Below are positions 12,272-21,540 of a stretch of 24,000 nucleotides of DNA, in pieces. Made by a program: the position numbers and the translations under genes. Origin of the DNA: Sediminivirga luteola (GTDB taxonomy: Bacteria > Actinomycetota > Actinomycetes > Actinomycetales > Brevibacteriaceae); the NCBI RefSeq assembly GCF_014639315.1, contig NZ_BMFY01000006.1:170510-194509 (forward strand), given 5' to 3'. The notes beneath the pieces are model-generated. The model ran no database searches. It saw only the letters and a list, made by a program, of their open reading frames with translations, and had not been told where the DNA came from. Numbering within the stretch: position 1 is the first letter of the stretch; each line of letters starts with the position of its first letter.

Positions 12272-13879
<1,608 letters not shown>

Positions 13880-13956
13880 CCTCCTCGTGAGTCGACGGTG
13901 GCGGATGAACAGCCCTGCTGGGGCGGTTTCGTCCGGTAACGCCTGACAGGAGCGCC

Positions 13957-13999
13957 AGAACCGGCCCGCACAGGATGACTGTGCGGGCCGGTTCTTCTT
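13957..13999 (+). terminator. Rho-independent terminator of groEL
   Basis: A perfect 17-bp stem AGAACCGGCCCGCACAG / gatga / CTGTGCGGGCCGGTTCT is followed by TCTT. It lies between the convergent groEL and ECF ATPase genes. Confidence 0.85.
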
Positions 14000-14023
14000 G
14001 CGCGTGGACTCCCGCGGCTGCTT

Positions 14024-15751
14024 TTATGGCGCGTGTGATGGCGTCGTGTCCTCAGGCGGGCAGAGATGGACGGTGCGGTCGGCGATGCTGCTGGCCCAGT
14101 GCAGGTCGTGGGTGGCGACCAGCACCGTGCCGCCCGCGCCGGTGAAGTCGTTCAGCAGTGTGTTCAGCCGCTGCATGCCTGCCAGGTCCCGGCCGAGTGT
14201 CGGCTCGTCCAGGAGCAGCGCTGCGGGTTCGAGCAGCAGCGCGGAGGCGATCACGAGGTCCTTGCGCCGGGCGGGGGAGAGGTCGTAGGGATGCGTGGCG
14301 GCATCGTGTTGGAGGTCCAGCCGTTCCATGATGCCGTCCACCTGTTCGTGCCGGCGTGCCCGCAGGCGTGTGCGCTCCGTTCGGCGATGCCTGGCAAGCG
14401 GCACGGCGCCTTCCAGTTCCGCGCGCGCCGATGCCGCCGAAAGCTGCATACCGGGGTCCTGGCCCACCCAGGCCAGATGGCGGGCACGCGCATGGAGCGG
14501 CAGCGCGCCCAGCTCCGTGCCGGCACGATCGATGATGCTTCCGGCGACGTCGTCGACGGGTCTCTTGCCGCGCCGGCGACCCCGGGTGAGTCCACCCGTC
14601 CTGCGCCGGCCGGAGGCGGGGATGTCCTCGGGCGAGGTCCCCGGGCGGTCTGCCGGACGGTCTGCCGGGCGGTCTGCCGGACCGAGCAGCCCGGCCAGAG
14701 CTGCCAGCAGCGTGGACTTCCCGGACCCGTTCGCGCCCAGCAGCGCCGTGGTGGTCCCGGCGAGGAGATCGAGGTCCACGCCGTCGATGACGGTTCTGCC
14801 GCCGCGCCGCACCCGCAGTCCGCGGACGCGCAACAGGAGATCCTGCCCGGTGCCTTCTTCCCCGCCGTCACGTCCGGGCGCCTGTACGCCGGGCAGCCGG
14901 GAGGTGTCGTGGACGCAGGAGGAGCTTCCGGCCCGGAAAGGAGCGTCTTGTGGAGCAGAATGGGCTGAGCCCGGTACCGGACCTGCCGCCGGCCTGGTAT
15001 CCCAGACCCCGTAGCGGCTGAGCAGGGCAGGCTGGGCAGTCACGTTCCCGGTGCCGGTCAGACGGCCCCGGTCCAGGAGCAGCACGTGGTCGCAGGCGGC
15101 GCTGAGCTCATCGTGCTGATGGCCGGTCAGCAGTACCGCACCGCCGGCCTGGCGGTGCGCGTCCAGAGCGCGGAGCAGATGCGCGCGCGCCCGGGCATCG
15201 AGGGCCAGGCCCGGCTGGTCCAGGATCACCAGGGGCGGGGCGAGCACCAGCAGCCCGGCCAGCGCCGTCAGCTGGCGTTCCCCGCCGGAGAGCGTGCTGA
15301 CGTCCCGTCCGGCCAGATGCGCGATGCTGAGGGCGCTCATCGCTTGCCCGACGGCTCCCGGCAGGCTGTCCCGGAGCATGCCGGTGAGCCGAGCTGGCAG
15401 GGAGACCTCTTCCGCGGCGGATCTGCTCAGCCCGGTCAGCTGCGCCTCGGGATCGTCGCCAAGGAGCGCGGCGCGGGCGTTCCTGTTCACGGTGCCGCTG
15501 TGCTCCCCGCGGTCGCTCAGGAGCCCCGCGGCCAGCCGCGCGAGCGTCGACGTCCCGGAACCCTGAGGCCCCAGCACCGCGATGCCCTCGCCCGGCCGGA
15601 TGACCAGGTCGATGTCCCTCAGCGCCGCGGCGTCTGCGTCCCGGTAGCGGAAGCCTGCCTTCTGCAGCGTCAGTAGCGGGATGGGGTTGCCTGGCTCAGC
15701 GCGGATGCTCCGGCTACCGGGGCCAGCCGGCGGCAGGCCTGTGGCGTTCAT
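14024..15751 (-). CDS. Fused double ATPase of an ECF transporter (EcfA-EcfA'/YkoD-like), asymmetric nucleotide sites
   Basis: 575 aa with two ABC nucleotide-binding domains. NBD1 has GPQGSGTST, LSGGERQ and LVILDQP. NBD2 has GANGSGKST, LSPARRK, LLLDEPT and VATHD. An ATGA overlap with the upstream T-component gene spans 15748-15751. Confidence 0.85.
   Translation of the reverse strand: MNATGLPPAGPGSRSIRAEPGNPIPLLTLQKAGFRYRDADAAALRDIDLVIRPGEGIAVLGPQGSGTSTLARLAAGLLSDRGEHSGTVNRNARAALLGDDPEAQLTGLSRSAAEEVSLPARLTGMLRDSLPGAVGQAMSALSIAHLAGRDVSTLSGGERQLTALAGLLVLAPPLVILDQPGLALDARARAHLLRALDAHRQAGGAVLLTGHQHDELSAACDHVLLLDRGRLTGTGNVTAQPALLSRYGVWDTRPAAGPVPGSAHSAPQDAPFRAGSSSCVHDTSRLPGVQAPGRDGGEEGTGQDLLLRVRGLRVRRGGRTVIDGVDLDLLAGTTTALLGANGSGKSTLLAALAGLLGPADRPADRPADRPGTSPEDIPASGRRRTGGLTRGRRRGKRPVDDVAGSIIDRAGTELGALPLHARARHLAWVGQDPGMQLSAASARAELEGAVPLARHRRTERTRLRARRHEQVDGIMERLDLQHDAATHPYDLSPARRKDLVIASALLLEPAALLLDEPTLGRDLAGMQRLNTLLNDFTGAGGTVLVATHDLHWASSIADRTVHLCPPEDTTPSHAP
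14645..14680 (-). repeat. In-frame 12-bp x3 tandem repeat encoding (PADR)3 inside NBD2 of the ECF ATPase
   Basis: The plus strand reads gcggtctgccgg / acggtctgccgg / gcggtctgccgg. The minus-strand translation is PADRPADRPADR. It lies just after Walker A and is followed by a very basic insert (SGRRRTGGLTRGRRRGKRP). Confidence 0.9.
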
Positions 15752-16515
15752 GGGTGCTCACTCCCGGCCGCCAGGGCGGGGATCAGGTCACTTGCCGCGG
15801 GAAGTGGCAGCCAGCCGCCGATGGAGGCCGCGACCACGGCGAGGGAGAGGGCCGGCAGTGCCCAGCGCAGCGTCCGCTGCAGCCGTCCATCCGGATAGCG
15901 CCGCCAGGGCGCCGGCCGGCGGGCTGTGCCGAAGCCGCGCTGGACGAGGGCGTCGTGCCGCTGATCCAGATCGGTCAGGGAGGATAGCAGGAGCCCCGCG
16001 GCGATGCCGCCCAGAAGCCGCAGCCGCACGCCGAGCCGTCTGGTGTCATGGCCGCGCGCCGCGCGGGCGGCGAGCGTGTCACCGAGTCGCTGCCGCAGTC
16101 GCGGCACCATTCCCACCGCGGCGGCGCAGACGTATGCCAGGCCGAGCGGCAGCCGCAGGACGATCAGCGCGTCGAAGACGCGGCCGGCATCGGCGCTCAG
16201 GGCGAAGACCAGGCAGACGGAGACCATCGCCGCGACCCGCAGCCACAGCTGGGCGGCCACCGCGGCGCCCTCCGCCGTCAGCCGTGCCGGACCCCATGAC
16301 CACAGGACCTCGGCGGGGCCCGGGTAGAACAGCCCCTGGACCACGCCGACGACCAGCAGCATGGGACCGGCGAGGACAAGCATGCCCAGGAGCCAGCTGC
16401 GAAGTCTCACCCGCGGCGAGCAGAGGGCGGCCGCGGCGGAGAGCAACAGCACCGCCGCCGGCATCAGCGGGGAGGCCACCCCGTAGACGAGCAGCATCGC
16501 GCAGGCCAGCAGCAC
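15748..16515 (-). CDS. ecfT: ECF transporter transmembrane (T) component, EcfT/CbiQ family
   Basis: The protein is hydrophobic and multi-pass. It has two Ala-Arg-Gly coupling-helix motifs (LAARAARGHD and ALVQRGFG). The stop overlaps the ATPase start. The first canonical in-frame start after the S-component stop is GTG 16515. The N-terminus may extend further; see the finding on the EcfT start. Confidence 0.7.
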   Translation of the reverse strand: MLLACAMLLVYGVASPLMPAAVLLLSAAAALCSPRVRLRSWLLGMLVLAGPMLLVVGVVQGLFYPGPAEVLWSWGPARLTAEGAAVAAQLWLRVAAMVSVCLVFALSADAGRVFDALIVLRLPLGLAYVCAAAVGMVPRLRQRLGDTLAARAARGHDTRRLGVRLRLLGGIAAGLLLSSLTDLDQRHDALVQRGFGTARRPAPWRRYPDGRLQRTLRWALPALSLAVVAASIGGWLPLPAASDLIPALAAGSEHP

Positions 16516-16607
16516 GAGAGCCGTGGCCGGATGCAGGAGACCGGGTTCCTCCGGCTCCGGGACGACTATCGCGACCGTCCCGGAACCTGGGAGCCCGGAG
16601 CCGGCGG

Positions 16608-17486
16608 TCAGGGCAGGTCCTCCCCGGAACGGGTACCAGCGCCGGCGGACCGTCCGGGGACCTTCGGCGGGAGGGAGTGAGCCGTGAACGCGAACCGGCT
16701 GCGCAGACGCTGGGGCACGGCACGGAAGGCGAGGAAGGCCACCGCGAAGACGATCGCCTTGTCGATGATGTCCGAGGGGATGGCCTGCAGGGTCGTGGCG
16801 GCGAGCATCGAGGCGCCGGCGGCCTGGAACGCCGCGACCACGCCGCCGGTGCCGACCCCCAGACCGCCGCCGAAGACATAGGCGGCGACCGGCGCGCCGA
16901 GCAGACCAGCGGGAATGCCGGCCACGCCTCCGGCCAGGATGGCCGTCCAGAGGCGGCGGAATGCTCCGGCGCGGGCTGCCCAGCCGGCGGCCGCGCCGAT
17001 GAACGCCGCACCGGCGGAGAACGGGATGAGGCTCGGGTTGATGGTGACGCCCCAGATGAGGTTCGTCAGGACGCCGGTGAGGGCACCGGCCGCGGGACCG
17101 GCCAGGACGCCGATGAGCACGGTGCCGAGGGAGTCGAGGTAGAGCGGGATGGGGGTGAGCGTGCCGACGATCTGGCCGATGACGACGTTGAGCGCGATCA
17201 TGACCGGCAGCAGTGCCAGCACAGTGGCGGGGATGCGGGGCAGCGCCCCGGCGGCGATCAGGAGCGCGCCGGCCAGATAGCCGGCCATGACGGCGAGGGT
17301 GGTGTGGCCGAGGTCGGCGCCCAGGGTGGCCGGCTGGGTGGCGAGGATCCACAGGTAGGTGCCGGCGATGACGAGAGCCCCGGCGGCGATGAGCAGGGTG
17401 GACCACAGCGGCGCTGCGGGAGGTGTGGCTGCGGGGCCCGCCGGAGCGGCGGACCCCTGTCCAGATGCGGGATCGTTGCTGGTCAT
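16608..17486 (-). CDS. ECF transporter substrate-specific (S) component, specificity unknown
   Basis: 292 aa from ATG 17486, which has AAGGA 8 nt upstream. It is a Gly/Ala-rich multi-pass membrane protein. The segment LYLDSLGTVLIGVLAGPAAGALTGVLTNLIWG is typical of ECF S components. The gene lies immediately upstream of the T and A-A' genes. Confidence 0.7.
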   Translation of the reverse strand: MTSNDPASGQGSAAPAGPAATPPAAPLWSTLLIAAGALVIAGTYLWILATQPATLGADLGHTTLAVMAGYLAGALLIAAGALPRIPATVLALLPVMIALNVVIGQIVGTLTPIPLYLDSLGTVLIGVLAGPAAGALTGVLTNLIWGVTINPSLIPFSAGAAFIGAAAGWAARAGAFRRLWTAILAGGVAGIPAGLLGAPVAAYVFGGGLGVGTGGVVAAFQAAGASMLAATTLQAIPSDIIDKAIVFAVAFLAFRAVPQRLRSRFAFTAHSLPPKVPGRSAGAGTRSGEDLP

Positions 17487-17554
17487 GAGGTGTCCTTCGG
17501 GGCGAGATGGATGGATGGTGGCAGTGCGGTCGGCGCGGGTGTCAGCGCCCGGCC

Positions 17555-18466
17555 TCAGCCGTGCTGACGGTAGGTGGGCTCGTGCCGCTTGAGTGTGTTC
17601 ACCACCGCGTAGGTGACCGGCAGCAGCAGGAACTCGACGGCGCACTTGTACACGAAGCCGAAGAGCACATAGCTGATGAAGTCCGCGCCGGGGATGATCC
17701 CCGCGAACGCGACGGTGCAGAAGATGAGGGTGTCCAGGAACTGGCCCGCCACGGTGGAGCCGGACAGGCGCGCCCAGAGGTGGCGTTCGCCGAAGCGGCG
17801 TTTGATGCGCACGATGATGAACGAGTTCAGCAGCTGGCCGACCAGGAACCCGGCCACGCTGGCCAGCAGGATCCGGGGGTAGAAGCCCAGGACCGCCTCG
17901 AAGGCCGCTTGATGCTCATAGCCGGGGCCGGGTGGGGCGATCATCACGGCGTAGAAGGTCAGCGCGGCGACGATCTGCACGCCGAAGCCGACCAGGATGG
18001 CCTTGCGGGCGGCGGCGAAGCCGTAGATCTCGCTGATGACGCCGCCGGCGATGTAGGCCAGGGGGAAGAGGAACGCGCCGCCGTCGGTGACGATCGGACC
18101 GAAGGAGATCACCTTGGTCGCGGAGATGTTCGAGACGAGGAAGAAGGCGACCAGGAGGGCCATCAGGATCGCGTAGAAGCGGCCCTGGGAGGAGGCGAAG
18201 AGAGCCTCGCCTGCCGAGGGGCGGCGGGCCTCAGAGCCGGTGCCGGCGACCGGGGCTCCGGCCGGGGAACCGGCTGGAGCGGGCCGGTCCGTGGCGGTCG
18301 CGGTCGCTGTGGTGCCGGCTGCGGCGCGGCTGCCGGTGCTGCCGGGGTTGCCGCGCTCTCCGGGCGGTCCGGGCGCAGCATCGTGGTGCCGGGTGGTTTC
18401 GCTGGTGTCCGCGGGGCCCGCCGGGCTGGCGGACCCCTGCCCAGATGCGGGATCGGCGCTGGTCAT
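17555..18466 (-). CDS. yhhQ: COG1738/YhhQ (DUF165, VUT family) transporter, queuosine-precursor-transporter-like, with ~95-aa disordered N-terminal extension
   Basis: By eye the C-terminal ~205 aa align to E. coli YhhQ. Matching stretches are SNISATK...DGGAFLFPLAYIAGGVISEIYG, PRILLASVAGFLVGQLLNSFIIVRIK and STVAGQFLDTLIFCTVAF. ATG 18466 overlaps the nucleoside hydrolase stop (ATGA). Confidence 0.8.
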   Translation of the reverse strand: MTSADPASGQGSASPAGPADTSETTRHHDAAPGPPGERGNPGSTGSRAAAGTTATATATDRPAPAGSPAGAPVAGTGSEARRPSAGEALFASSQGRFYAILMALLVAFFLVSNISATKVISFGPIVTDGGAFLFPLAYIAGGVISEIYGFAAARKAILVGFGVQIVAALTFYAVMIAPPGPGYEHQAAFEAVLGFYPRILLASVAGFLVGQLLNSFIIVRIKRRFGERHLWARLSGSTVAGQFLDTLIFCTVAFAGIIPGADFISYVLFGFVYKCAVEFLLLPVTYAVVNTLKRHEPTYRQHG

Positions 18467-19578
18467 GATGTCGGTCCTCTCATCAGTACGGTCTGCAGGT
18501 GCTCCAGGAAGCCGCCGGCGTCGATGCGCCGGATCACTTCCGCGTTGGGCGTCCGGTTCCAGCGGCCGAGCCAGTCGGCCACGGTCTCGCCGCGGGTCAG
18601 GGTGCCGTGGAGCTCGACGTCGATGGCGACGCGTGCGGTCTCTGCCCAGGGGATTATCCCGTCTGCGCCGCGGTCAGGCGAATCGTCGGCGGTCCCGTCG
18701 TCGGCGGTCCCGCGGCCTGCCGCGTGCGCCCGCGCCCAGCCGATAGCGGCGGCCAGCACGTACGGATCGTGGATATGCGCCAGATAGCCGTGGCCGTCTG
18801 ATTCGTGGAACTCGAAGTAGAACCTCAGTGCCGCAGCGAGCTGTTCCAGCCAGTGCTGCCACCGGTCGTCGCGCGGTCCGGGCTCGCGGACCGCGTTTCC
18901 GGCCGCGTCGTGCCCGGTGCCGTCCCCGAGGATCGCGTCGAGCCGTTCCGGGGTCATCACGACGGCTTCCGTGGCCTCGAGCGGCCCGATGACCGGCAGG
19001 CTGTCCGCCCGGCCGAAAGCGGCGAAGACGCGGGCCGCGGCCTCGGGATCGCAGCTGATGTTCCACTCGGTGGTCGGCCGGGTGTTCCCGCGGTAGTTGA
19101 ACGCGCCGCCCATCACGAAGAGCCGCCGGATGAGCGCGGGCAGGCGCGGTTCGATCTCCAGGGCGAGCGCCAGGTTCGTGGCCGGTCCCAGCAGGACGCC
19201 GACGAGTTCACCCGGATGGGCTCGGGCGGCCTCCACCCAGGCGCGGGCGGCGTCGCGGGCATCGGGCACGGCGTCCTGCGGCAGGACCGCGTAGCCGGTT
19301 CCGGTGTCCCCGTGCGTGTCCTCGGCATACTCCGCCTCGCCGGAGAGCGGCAGGTCCGCGCCCGGATGCACCGGGACGTCGGCGCGGCCGGCCAGGGCGA
19401 GCCAGCCGAGCGCGTTGCGGACCACCTGCCCGGTGGGCACGTTCCCGCCGCTGGCGGCCACTCCGGTGATCAGCACGTCCTCCTGGCAGAGGGCGTAGCC
19501 GAGGGCGATGGCATCGTCGATGCCGGGGTCGCAGTCGATGAAGAGCGGGATCATGCTCCCCATTCTGCCGGTAGGCAC
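18463..19578 (-). CDS. Inosine/uridine-preferring-type nucleoside hydrolase (IUNH family)
   Basis: The N-terminal signature is LFIDCDPGIDDAIAL (DxDxxxDD). Further motifs are LLGPATNLALAL, HDPYVLAAA and FVMGGA. GTG 19578 is the longest ORF start. ATG 19563 or ATG 19554 (giving MIPLFIDCDPG) are equally plausible. Confidence 0.85.
   Translation of the reverse strand: MPTGRMGSMIPLFIDCDPGIDDAIALGYALCQEDVLITGVAASGGNVPTGQVVRNALGWLALAGRADVPVHPGADLPLSGEAEYAEDTHGDTGTGYAVLPQDAVPDARDAARAWVEAARAHPGELVGVLLGPATNLALALEIEPRLPALIRRLFVMGGAFNYRGNTRPTTEWNISCDPEAAARVFAAFGRADSLPVIGPLEATEAVVMTPERLDAILGDGTGHDAAGNAVREPGPRDDRWQHWLEQLAAALRFYFEFHESDGHGYLAHIHDPYVLAAAIGWARAHAAGRGTADDGTADDSPDRGADGIIPWAETARVAIDVELHGTLTRGETVADWLGRWNRTPNAEVIRRIDAGGFLEHLQTVLMRGPTS
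18682..18711 (-). repeat. In-frame 15-bp x2 tandem duplication encoding (GTADD)2 in the nucleoside hydrolase
   Basis: The plus strand reads atcgtcggcggtccc / gtcgtcggcggtccc. It lies within an apparent surface insertion (HAAGRGTADDGTADDSPDRGADG). Confidence 0.85.
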
Positions 19579-19590
19579 GGACAGGCGGCC

Positions 19591-20802
19591 TCAGCCGCTC
19601 CAGGCCGCGAGGCATCGGGCCATGACGCGGAAGGGCAGGCTCTGAGCATTCCGACCGCCGGCCTGGTCCACCGTCCCGGCGAGATCCACGCCGAGTTCCG
19701 GGCAGGAGAAGAGCCAGCTGCCGGTGGCACCGGAGTGTCCCACGAGGGTGACCGCGCGCAGCCGGCCCGCCACCGGGATCACGGTCCGGAAGATCATCGT
19801 GCCCATGCCATATCGCAGCACGGGGATGTTCCGCAGCCGGTTGCGCCGTTCGGTCAGCAGGGCCGCTGTGCGGGTGCTGCGGAAGAGATCACCGCGGCGC
19901 AGCGCGCGCTGAAAACGCAGGAGATCCCCGGTGGTGCTGATCAGATCGTTGCTGGAGGCGATCAGGGAACCGAGATTCACGGGATGACGTCCGGCGCAGA
20001 TGGTGGTGGGAGGCGGTGCCGGATCGTCGCCCGTGAGATGCGGGCCGGCCGCGCCGTGCCCGGGTGCGGCGCCGTGCCGTGGAGCTGGACTGTGCCCGGG
20101 GTGCCAGGTGTGGTGCAGTCCGGCCGGTCCGGTGATCCGTTCGGCCAGCAGCCCGGCGAAGTCCTGTCCCGTCACGGTCTCCAGGATGCGGATCAGCAAC
20201 TGGAAACCGGTGTCCGAATAGCGTGCTTTCTGGCGGGACGCGGAAAGGTCCTGCGGGGCGAAGTGCCCTCGCTGCTGCTCGCGGGTCGTCCTGATCATGT
20301 CCTCGAAACTCCAGGACGTGTCCTGGCCGGCGGCGAGCCGGGAGTAGAGGCTCGGGCCGTCGCTACGACGCTCGAAATGATCCGGCAGCCCGGAGGTGTG
20401 CGTGGCCAGGTGCCGCACCGTGACGGCGGGCGTGTGATCGGTTCCCCGCAGGGTGTGCAGCCCGGTGGTGACGTCCGGCGGCAGTACGCCGGTGATCGGA
20501 GCTGCCAGATCGACCTCGCCGCGCTCGTGCGCCTGCAGCAGCAGAGTCACGATGAATCGCTTGGTGACGGAGGCGATGAAGAAGGGGCGGCCCGGATCCG
20601 GAGGCCCCGCCTCATCGGCGGCACCTGCGGCGGCGGACCACCGGAGGCTCCCGTCGGCACTGGCGACGGCCACCGTCGCGTGGTGCAGGCGCTGCCCTCC
20701 CCGGCGCGCGATGAGCTTTTGCAGCACACGTTGCAGTCGTGCCTGCGCGTCCGGCCGGGCGGTGTTGTCGCCGGCGGGGACCACGAGCGGCGGCCTGTCC
20801 AT
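19591..20802 (-). CDS. Beta-lactamase-family (class C/PBP-like) serine hydrolase
   Basis: 403 aa. ATG 20802 has GAGGAAGGGAG upstream. The SxxK motif is FIASVTKRF, the YxN-like box is ARYSDTG, and the KTG-like box is VGHSGATG. The stop lies 12-36 nt before the nucleoside hydrolase start. Confidence 0.8.
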   Translation of the reverse strand: MDRPPLVVPAGDNTARPDAQARLQRVLQKLIARRGGQRLHHATVAVASADGSLRWSAAAGAADEAGPPDPGRPFFIASVTKRFIVTLLLQAHERGEVDLAAPITGVLPPDVTTGLHTLRGTDHTPAVTVRHLATHTSGLPDHFERRSDGPSLYSRLAAGQDTSWSFEDMIRTTREQQRGHFAPQDLSASRQKARYSDTGFQLLIRILETVTGQDFAGLLAERITGPAGLHHTWHPGHSPAPRHGAAPGHGAAGPHLTGDDPAPPPTTICAGRHPVNLGSLIASSNDLISTTGDLLRFQRALRRGDLFRSTRTAALLTERRNRLRNIPVLRYGMGTMIFRTVIPVAGRLRAVTLVGHSGATGSWLFSCPELGVDLAGTVDQAGGRNAQSLPFRVMARCLAAWSG

Positions 20803-20830
20803 GACGCTCCCTTCCTCACTAGATGTATGC

Positions 20831-20851
20831 GATATGTCTATTAGACATATC
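20831..20851. promoter_or_regulatory. 21-bp perfect palindrome GATATGTCTA-T-TAGACATATC, candidate PadR operator in divergent promoter region
   Basis: Read directly from the sequence. It sits in a ~40-bp island of roughly one-third GC within a ~70% GC genome. It lies between the operon start (20802, minus strand) and the padR start (20882, plus strand). It contains ATGT-N7-ACAT, close to the ATGT-N8-ACAT dyad described for PadR-family operators. Confidence 0.6.
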
Positions 20852-20881
20852 TATGAGAGTCAAGCCGCTAGGATTGCACCT

Positions 20882-21442
20882 GTGGCACATGTGATTCTGG
20901 GGCTCCTCCTGATCGCTCCGCGGAGCTTGTACGACCTGATCAAGGACTTCGAGGCCGGGGTGGGTCTCTTCTACAGCGCGAGCGCGGGGAGCATCAAGCG
21001 TGCCCTGGATGGACTCCTGCGGGAAGGGCGGATCGAGGTCGCGAGCACCGAGCGCTCCGGGCGAGGCCGCAAGACCTACCGCGTCACCGACTCCGGCAGG
21101 GAGGAGTTCCGCAGCTGGATGACCGGGGACGTGACCGGCACGGATCTGGAAACTGCGGCCCTCGCGCGGCTGCACTTCCTCGGCTTGCTGGAAGCGGGAG
21201 AACGGCCGCTCGTGCTGCGCCGCATCCAGGCGCGCTATGCCGCCGATCTCGCGCGTCTCACCGCCCTGGAGGAAGAACTCAGCACGGCGGAGGTGCCGCC
21301 GGAGTTCCACGACATCGCGGCATACCAGCAGGCGACTCTCGACTACGGCATCGCCACGCTCCGCTTCGCGCTGGACTGGTTCCAGCGTATTCCCGGCAGT
21401 GCCGAGCCGGCAGAACAGGCGCGAGAGAACCCAAGGGACTGA
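20882..21442 (+). CDS. PadR-family transcriptional regulator (two-domain PadR-1 type, ~186 aa)
   Basis: The product reads VAHVILGLLLIAPRSLYDLIKDFEAGVGLFYSASAGSIKRALDGLLREGRIEV...RKTYRVTDSGREEF, a winged-HTH of PadR type, followed by a helical C-terminal domain. I chose GTG 20882. TAGGAT at 20869-20874 would place a transcription start at about 20881, giving a leaderless mRNA. The upstream ATG 20834 would put the palindrome inside the CDS. Confidence 0.8.
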   Translation: MAHVILGLLLIAPRSLYDLIKDFEAGVGLFYSASAGSIKRALDGLLREGRIEVASTERSGRGRKTYRVTDSGREEFRSWMTGDVTGTDLETAALARLHFLGLLEAGERPLVLRRIQARYAADLARLTALEEELSTAEVPPEFHDIAAYQQATLDYGIATLRFALDWFQRIPGSAEPAEQARENPRD

Positions 21443-21540
21443 ACCTGCCGACGCACCCAGACGCTGTCCTGCTGTTCAGGCAGCCGGGAAATGAGGGAGG
21501 GTCTTCCGGGGTGCCCGTGGCCGGCTGCTAGCCTCCGCCC

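Follow-up and report, generated by a model that had tools for sequence, protein, structure and literature searches.

Riboswitches that sense prequeuosine1 (preQ1) most often act on translation initiation. Their aptamers are found in the 5' untranslated region (UTR), and the Shine-Dalgarno sequence is usually part of them. The C. difficile genes queK (queuosine hydrolase), qrtT (the S component of an energy-coupling factor, or ECF, transporter) and queL are controlled by a preQ1-I riboswitch (PMC11477304). Actinomycetota are predicted to salvage queuine, many of them without a known transporter, and ECF S genes have been noted adjoining QueK-family genes (PMC11130926). The preQ1 literature consulted does not place the known classes in Actinomycetota, and searching the literature turned up neither a fourth preQ1 class nor a queuine riboswitch, nor an aptamer embedded in an open reading frame (ORF). 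Here we analyze a 24,000-nucleotide stretch of the actinomycete Sediminivirga luteola (contig NZ_BMFY01000006.1, positions 170,510 to 194,509; hereafter the window), in which two adjacent genes, one for a YhhQ-type transporter and one for an ECF S component, begin with nearly the same 21 codons. Comparison with related loci indicates that this shared module is a structured cis-acting mRNA element within the first ~25 codons of two importer genes. On balance we favor reading it as a new and uncatalogued riboswitch-like cis-regulator, embedded in the ORF, that responds to a queuosine precursor and controls both importers.

The features of the two copies, all read from the minus strand, are as follows.

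18404 to 18466, minus strand: repeat copy A, the first 21 codons of the YhhQ/QPTR-type gene (gapless alignment; repeat search).
17424 to 17486, minus strand: repeat copy B, the first 21 codons of the ECF S gene (gapless alignment; repeat search).
18396 to 18451, minus strand: RNA element, YhhQ copy (covariance model R1, 55.6 bits, E 1e-10; the copy is model seed, and the match is partly by construction).
17416 to 17471, minus strand: RNA element, S copy (covariance model R1, 48.8 bits, E 6e-9; also model seed).
18437 to 18445, minus strand: conserved core UCUGGGCAG (codons Ser-Gly-Gln), YhhQ copy, near-invariant in 46 copies.
17457 to 17465, minus strand: core of the S copy, UCUGGACAG, with G-to-A at core position 6 (coordinates checked).
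18413 to 18437, minus strand: hairpin P1, YhhQ copy, GGGGUCCGCC-AGCCC-GGCGGGCCCC, 10 bp (covariation across homologues).
17433 to 17457, minus strand: hairpin P1, S copy, GGGGUCCGCC(G)-CUC-(C)GGCGGGCCCC, which differs from the YhhQ copy in the loop.
18402 to 18412, minus strand: 3' tail, YhhQ copy, GCGGACACCAG, whose CCAG can pair with core CUGG (tentative helix P0).
17422 to 17432, minus strand: 3' tail, S copy, GCAGCCACACC, degenerate and with no clear P0 partner.

The identity on which the original prediction was built is as described there: positions 18466 down to 18404 align without gaps to 17486 down to 17424, with 54 of 63 nt and 18 of 21 amino acids the same. A repeat search of the window returned the pair as 67 nt at 87% identity (17425-17491 and 18405-18471), the longest high-identity pair in the 24 kb; the other listed families reach at most 51 nt, with no copy above 78% identity. 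The flanks are dissimilar (16/60 identical positions upstream, 23/60 downstream). The similarity does stop after codon 21 as had been stated, but it begins 5 nt before the ATG (AC-N-TC-ATG) and not at the ATG itself, and a Shine-Dalgarno-like AGGAC pentamer lies further upstream in both copies at slightly different spacing. It had also been noted that several differences are synonymous, which is true of three of the nine (single changes GGG/GGA, GCG/GCA and ACC/ACA), the remaining six making up three replaced codons (GCC/AAC, AGC/GCT and GAC/GCC). The two proteins do belong to different families, one a Vut_1/TIGR00697 transporter and the other a CD3073-type ECF S component.

Conservation was counted over 46 distinct copies of the element from six Micrococcales genera, in DNA from 80 S loci and several YhhQ loci. 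The core UCUGGGCAG is near-invariant, with its codons appearing as UCU in 45, GGG in 43 and CAG in 44 of the 46 copies; elsewhere in the same ORFs, UCU accounts for 7.1% of serine, GGG for 11.5% of glycine and CAG for 81% of glutamine codons. Nearly all S homologues at 47-70% identity start M-T-x-x-D-x-x-S-G-Q-G-x6-P-G-E (Nesterenkonia, Brevibacterium, Leucobacter, Pseudoclavibacter and Rothia), and Brevibacterium YhhQ proteins carry A-S-G-Q-P ... P-A-E/Q-T/N. The residues encoded by the stem that lies between these motifs vary freely (SAAPAG, SVTAAD, LVSTTS, PTTTVG, PDRLSD). Since the core codons are frozen and the stem-encoded residues are variable, the module is kept as nucleotides and not as a peptide.

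A hairpin of 10-12 bp, P1, follows the core on its 3' side. It is closed by an invariant G-C pair and is otherwise variable in sequence, with forms such as CCGACC-ACCAC-GGUCGG, CUCGUC-AGCAC-GACGAG and UCCGCC-GCUCC-GGCGG, and its length clusters at 22-23 and 25-26 nt. The base of the stem differs by lineage, being GGGG/UCCC in most S copies, GAGG/CCUC in Rothia and CCGG/CCGG in Brevibacterium-type YhhQ copies. In the alignment of covariance model R1, which was built from 16 S-type copies, 96.8% of cells are standard pairs, compared to 77.6 ± 1.4% after shuffling, and 9 of the 10 P1 pairs have changes on both sides. Sliding the partner strand by one to three columns as a register control lowered pairing to 25-63%, and RNAalifold recovered the same helix independently, with compensatory changes in seven of eight pairs. 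In 22 sequences one stem position is a G-U pair; read from the opposite strand it would become an A-C mismatch, which assigns the fold to the sense transcript rather than to the DNA or an antisense RNA. Conserved secondary structure supported by covariation, one of the generic hallmarks of a riboswitch, is present here. Among the explanations raised in the original prediction, the mRNA 5' element is supported, by frozen third codon positions, a stem that covaries with strand-specific G-U pairs and an encoded peptide that varies.

The element lies inside the reading frame of the genes it heads. In almost every locus there is no in-frame ATG, GTG or TTG between the element and the first membrane helix, and in the S gene the next in-frame start after the element is at +177, inside the protein. 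Many loci have a stop codon 39-42 nt 5' of the core, which leaves the ATG at -21 as the only possible start. All copies of the element are in frame, and the start-to-core distance is 21 nt in 21 of 39 distinct copies. On this absence of an alternative start codon, the reading frames indicate that the element is translated. The idea that it is really a 5' UTR was rejected because no later start precedes the first membrane helix.

The last part of the element is an A/C-rich tail with the consensus G-S-N-N-A-A-A-C-C-C, exemplified by GGAGAAAC, GGACAAAAC, GGUAAAAAC and CGAAAC. Core CUGGG is often matched by CCCAG(A) 6-9 nt 3' of the hairpin, and the Rothia tail variants CCCGGA and CUCAGA keep the pairing with the core via wobble. 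A helix P0 of at least 5 bp at that position can be drawn in 17 of 39 copies, compared to 6.2 ± 2.3 with shuffled tails, in a comparison that ignores relatedness; we treat this outer helix as tentative. Pairing of core and tail would leave an asymmetric internal loop. Loci L054 and L088 have the G-to-A core variant of the window S copy too, and neither the consensus tail nor P0 is present in any of the three.

Some minor observations concern the core sequence. Loci L089, L091 and L092 (~2490-2512) carry a degenerate second core, GAGUCUGGGCG, 18 nt 5' of the real one, and P0143, a YhhQ protein of the Brevibacterium type, carries ASGQPD three times in tandem; both suggest local tandem duplication of the core. 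A further occurrence, CCUGGGCAGAGA, inside the hydrolase gene (window 18639-18650, minus strand; L012 3818) was set aside as a chance look-alike, being a conserved PWAET-encoding segment with no hairpin or tail.

The genes that carry the element form a narrow set. A search of 789 kb (the window plus 99 loci) with the covariance model matched only S and YhhQ starts, plus a few matches with E > 0.2, and only two gene families bear the element, YhhQ and the ECF S genes of nucleoside-hydrolase/ECF operons. The hydrolase-S-T-ATPase operon, found across Micrococcales and Propionibacteriales, is the ancestral S operon, and in Nesterenkonia, Leucobacter and Brevibacterium its hydrolase gene ends right at the S start. 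The element-bearing YhhQ genes of Brevibacterium belong to a cluster of tRNA_edit (YbaK-like), YhhQ, GDSL lipase and TGT, with TGT two genes away. This gene context places both transporters in the salvage of queuosine precursors, and a view of them as functionally unconnected does not hold. By analogy, the element marks a gene set that is under preQ1 riboswitch control in other phyla. A metagenome scan with a YhhQ alignment found the element in 6 of 80 loci (L087-L092), the remaining loci holding short-N-terminus YhhQ genes of other actinobacterial lineages, so the YhhQ-linked form is narrowly distributed.

Around YhhQ in five Brevibacterium loci (L081, L082, L084, L169 and L170), some or all of peptidase M3, tRNA_edit (YbaK-like), GDSL lipase and TGT are present, and tRNA_edit runs 11-17 nt past the YhhQ start in all five. 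Locus L167 has no tRNA_edit, and its element is in a true intergenic leader.

In the window, the two importer genes are part of an operon on the minus strand with the following components.

18463 to 19578, minus strand: nucleoside hydrolase gene of the IU_nuc_hydro (QueK-type) family (Pfam 268 bits, E 1e-79; stop codon checked).
17555 to 18466, minus strand: YhhQ/QPTR-type transporter gene (Vut_1, TIGR00697).
17487 to 17554, minus strand: YhhQ-S spacer of 68 nt (compared with the sister lineage).
16608 to 17486, minus strand: ECF S-component gene, CD3073-type (NCBIfam NF045596 match).
15748 to 16515, minus strand: ECF T-component gene, CbiQ family (Pfam match; gene call in a near-identical Sediminivirga luteola contig).
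14024 to 15751, minus strand: fused double ATP-binding cassette ATPase gene of the ECF module (domain matches).

The hydrolase TGA overlaps the YhhQ ATG (ATGA). The strong IU_nuc_hydro match of the hydrolase (18463-19578) is accompanied by RihA/YbeK-type hydrolases as the nearest solved structures. The YhhQ protein matches Pfam Vut_1 at residues 128-288 (166.3 bits, cut-off 27.2; E 8e-49) and scores above the curated cut-off of TIGR00697, 'queuosine precursor transporter' (126.4 bits, cut-off 50.95). It has a low-complexity N-terminal extension of ~95 residues, and residues 22-95 (18182-18403, minus strand) form a linker of ~75 residues rich in Ala, Pro, Gly and Thr between the element and the YhhQ core. 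This linker is missing in most YhhQ homologues and diverges fast in the sister lineage, including by insertions and deletions. The window S protein has no Pfam match, and some of its homologues have PF12822. Directly after the S gene come the CbiQ-type T gene and then the fused double ATPase gene.

Just two lineages, that of the window and Nesterenkonia sedimenti (L014), have a YhhQ gene between the hydrolase and S genes, and both carry two elements. The L014 copy at the hydrolase junction resembles the N. sphaerica S copy, including in its leader codons (17/21), which indicates that the junction copy is the ancestral S copy, now heading YhhQ, and that S gained a second copy. Compared with each other, the L014 copies are identical at 40 of 42 positions in core plus hairpin and at 11 of 21 in the leaders; the corresponding figures for the window copies are 35/42 and 19/21. 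In a sister lineage with 85% YhhQ identity, the two copies are 62/63 and 63/63 nt identical to those of the window. The YhhQ linker there is identical at 78 of 117 nt (ungapped), and the YhhQ-S spacer, 172 nt in length versus 68, at 26 of 60; this spacer is poorly kept apart from its last ~15 nt, the site of the AGGAC ribosome-binding-like motif. Retention of the copies beside a diverged spacer indicates that the duplication predates the window/sister split, with the nine differences already fixed, and that both copies are under purifying selection. The YhhQ body would thus have been placed behind the ancestral element in the window lineage, with a second copy now heading S and both kept by selection. 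The duplication or conversion event that had been proposed for this locus did take place as a duplication, but it is not recent and it has been maintained, as both the sister lineage and N. sedimenti keep two copies. In two Nesterenkonia genomes (L005 7354-8013, L023 7451-8119), YhhQ follows the ATPase gene as the last gene of the hydrolase-S-T-ATPase operon and has no element ahead of it; these differing positions indicate that YhhQ joined the operon at different places in different lineages.

Comparison with catalogued RNAs covered the window, three element-bearing regions and 17 related loci, and gave no match to any Rfam family. The preQ1 families (RF00522, RF01054 and RF02680) had no hit at gathering score in the window and none at E <= 10 in window 17300-18700, L033 2470-2680 or L170 2940-3140, search spaces of 200-1400 nt. 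The element resembles preQ1 classes I-III in its association with the same kinds of genes, namely YhhQ/COG1738, the queuosine-precursor ECF S and the C. difficile queK-qrtT-queL set (PMC11477304), and in being small, with an A-rich strand beside a G-C-rich helix. It differs from them in its apparent topology, a nested two-helix fold with an internal loop rather than an H-type pseudoknot, in its position after the start codon, where it is translated, and in its occurrence in Micrococcales (Actinomycetota), in which the salvaged compound is likely queuine rather than preQ1 (PMC11130926). With conventional translational riboswitches of the 5' UTR it shares a conserved sequence with a covarying helix, placement at gene 5' ends within a single pathway across several genera, and the presence of several copies per genome on different transporter families. 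Unlike these, the whole element is within the ORF, under the double constraint of frame and fold, and it is often at an overlapping stop/start junction inside an operon. The generic riboswitch pattern of an untranslated leader whose expression platform alternates between two folds does not describe it.

Further RNA-level candidates were examined and rejected: a frameshift site, as there is no slippery heptamer; a G-quadruplex, as the G-tracts are not conserved in Rothia; and a mimic of the TGT substrate, as the loops lack UGU.

It is possible, and we advance this tentatively, that the element represents a new class of riboswitch for a queuosine precursor (queuine or preQ1) in which the whole aptamer is translated, some 55 nt serving both as a ligand-sensing fold and as the N-terminal codons of an importer. 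The element has three parts, a single-stranded core UCUGGGCA, the hairpin and the A/C-rich tail. Both importers would bring in precursors of the tRNA base queuosine, with the ECF S component working with the adjoining hydrolase of the QueK-like family and YhhQ/QPTR importing the free base. Its most likely role would be to sense queuine or preQ1, with ligand binding stabilizing a fold that starts ~22 nt past the AUG, at the edge of the footprint of the initiating ribosome (30S). The folded element would then lower translation of the importer, in initiation or early elongation. The result would be gene-specific feedback in operons that have no untranslated spacer for a conventional leader.

A serious rival to this metabolite-sensing account is that the element is a functional structured RNA of another kind, such as a binding site for a protein or small RNA, or a determinant of processing or stability that uncouples the importer genes from the gene upstream. 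The evidence from covariation and conservation applies equally to such an RNA, and the element always stands at an internal operon junction or behind a very short leader. Its most conserved part is a 9-nt single strand beside a plain hairpin, as is typical of protein-binding sites, and the search for a switching structure found none. However, no candidate regulator gene accompanies the element in the loci examined, and its presence within a single salvage pathway on transporters of two unrelated families is the classic riboswitch signature, in a gene set that mirrors the preQ1 riboswitch regulon (PMC11477304). We consider a protein-binding or processing role rather unlikely on these grounds, and the one that most deserves to be weighed against sensing.

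The remaining alternatives bear on the peptide, the history and the codons of the leader. A selected N-terminal cytoplasmic peptide common to both importers, whether tag, docking motif or targeting signal, had been suggested for this locus and would be in keeping with translation in a fixed frame and with the recurrence of SGQG...PGE and SGQP...PAE in predicted proteins. It is strongly disfavored by the frozen synonymous sites, UCU being used in 45 of 46 copies against a background of 7%, and by the chemically unconserved residues between the motifs, whose codons keep base pairing. The residue after P-G/A can be E, Q, K, V or D, and more distant S and YhhQ homologues work without such an N-terminus; we regard the peptide explanation as very improbable. 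Slightly less credible still is that the similarity is a functionless by-product of a recent strain-specific duplication or gene conversion. The window copies are indeed alike even in their leader codons, and copies within one genome have common lineage-specific stems (the window and L014), but the element is at orthologous positions in six genera, which refutes this as a sufficient explanation and rules out the scenario of orthologues without the module. The nine differences are, moreover, common to the sister lineage, whose spacer is at 43% identity. The leader could also act as a translational sensor of queuosine-tRNA status, with Asp, Asn, His and Tyr codons before the hairpin tuning ribosome speed. 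These codons make up 16.6% of leader codons, compared to 7.4% in the bodies of the same genes, but the latter are hydrophobic membrane domains and make an unfair background. The leader is free of such codons in several lineages (for example MTTKSRQ in L009), the conserved core contains none, and the invariance of UCUGGGCAG would be left unexplained, all of which makes this idea as improbable as the preceding one.

Several points weigh against the interpretation of the element as a sensor of a queuosine precursor. Everything beyond a conserved structured RNA is drawn from gene context. We know of no natural riboswitch aptamer that lies wholly within a translated region. Complementarity of the leader to the core and 5' stem scored 208, compared to 205 ± 6 for shuffled sequences, so the search for a switching structure gave a value equal to chance. 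Single-sequence fold energies of the window copies against shuffles have z-scores of -1.67 and -0.54, unremarkable at this GC content; a lower-GC Rothia copy, at z -3.46, is the sole outlier in the folding test. The window S copy has both a core mutation and a degenerate tail. Enrichment over shuffled tails is the one line of evidence for P0, tail and P0 are only moderately conserved, and true covariation of P0 cannot be shown because its 5' strand is invariant. Queuosine is only the predicted substrate of the hydrolase, and the S protein scores 111.6 bits against NCBIfam NF045596 (CD3073), under the cut-off of 180.

If the sensing interpretation is correct, the element would be a first candidate sensor of a queuosine precursor for Actinomycetota, and the hydrolase-linked ECF S family would be a candidate for the queuosine/queuine transporter that, according to comparative genomics, is missing in many members of this phylum (PMC11130926). 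A translated aptamer would explain its absence from searches confined to intergenic regions and would allow gene-by-gene control at overlapping stop and start codons. More generally, RNA folds that sense metabolites or regulate in other ways could hide in annotated coding sequences, posing as a 'peptide motif', and intergenic-only pipelines would miss them. The joint constraints of frame and fold would make the element a tidy natural case of dual coding.

Some S genes have a different RNA structure. The ORF-embedded element is absent from those of Arthrobacter, Pseudarthrobacter, Glutamicibacter, Paeniglutamicibacter and Corynebacterium frankenforstense, which have another leader hairpin instead, located 60-130 nt 5' of the S ATG, just after a TAGAAT/TAGACT -10-like box, and with an invariant loop GAGGUGACAU(A/UA). 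This hairpin was seen in L029 and L043-L080 (32 distinct; for example L069 3940-3990 and L060 3860-3895), with covarying stems GCUGCC/GGCAGC, GGGCC/GGCCC, GGGUC/GACCC and CCACC/GGUGG. In L069, a GUUCC after the hairpin can pair with the ribosome-binding site AAGGAAC. The Arthrobacter-type hairpin resembles the ORF-embedded element in its link to orthologous ECF S genes that accompany a hydrolase, in its combination of covarying stems with an invariant single-stranded segment, and in the lack of an Rfam match. Unlike that element, the hairpin is in a true 5' leader, and its invariant loop has no resemblance to UCUGGGCAG. The two structures are mutually exclusive across the 80 loci. This S gene family may thus have a second leader RNA that is in no catalogue, and the presence of the Arthrobacter-type hairpin on S genes without the element suggests that the family is generally RNA-regulated.

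A promoter and terminator scan of 13800-21500 in the window returned no promoter-like site, and neither the element nor the YhhQ-S spacer holds a terminator-like site. The neighbors of the operon are groES-groEL on one side and, on the other, a beta-lactamase-family gene with a divergent PadR-family regulator gene (window ~12.0-13.9 kb and 20.8-21.5 kb), with matching genes in locus L085. NCBI and UniRef give many homologues of the S component the name 'histidine kinase' (P0003, P0010, P0029, P0031 and others), which looks like a propagated misannotation.

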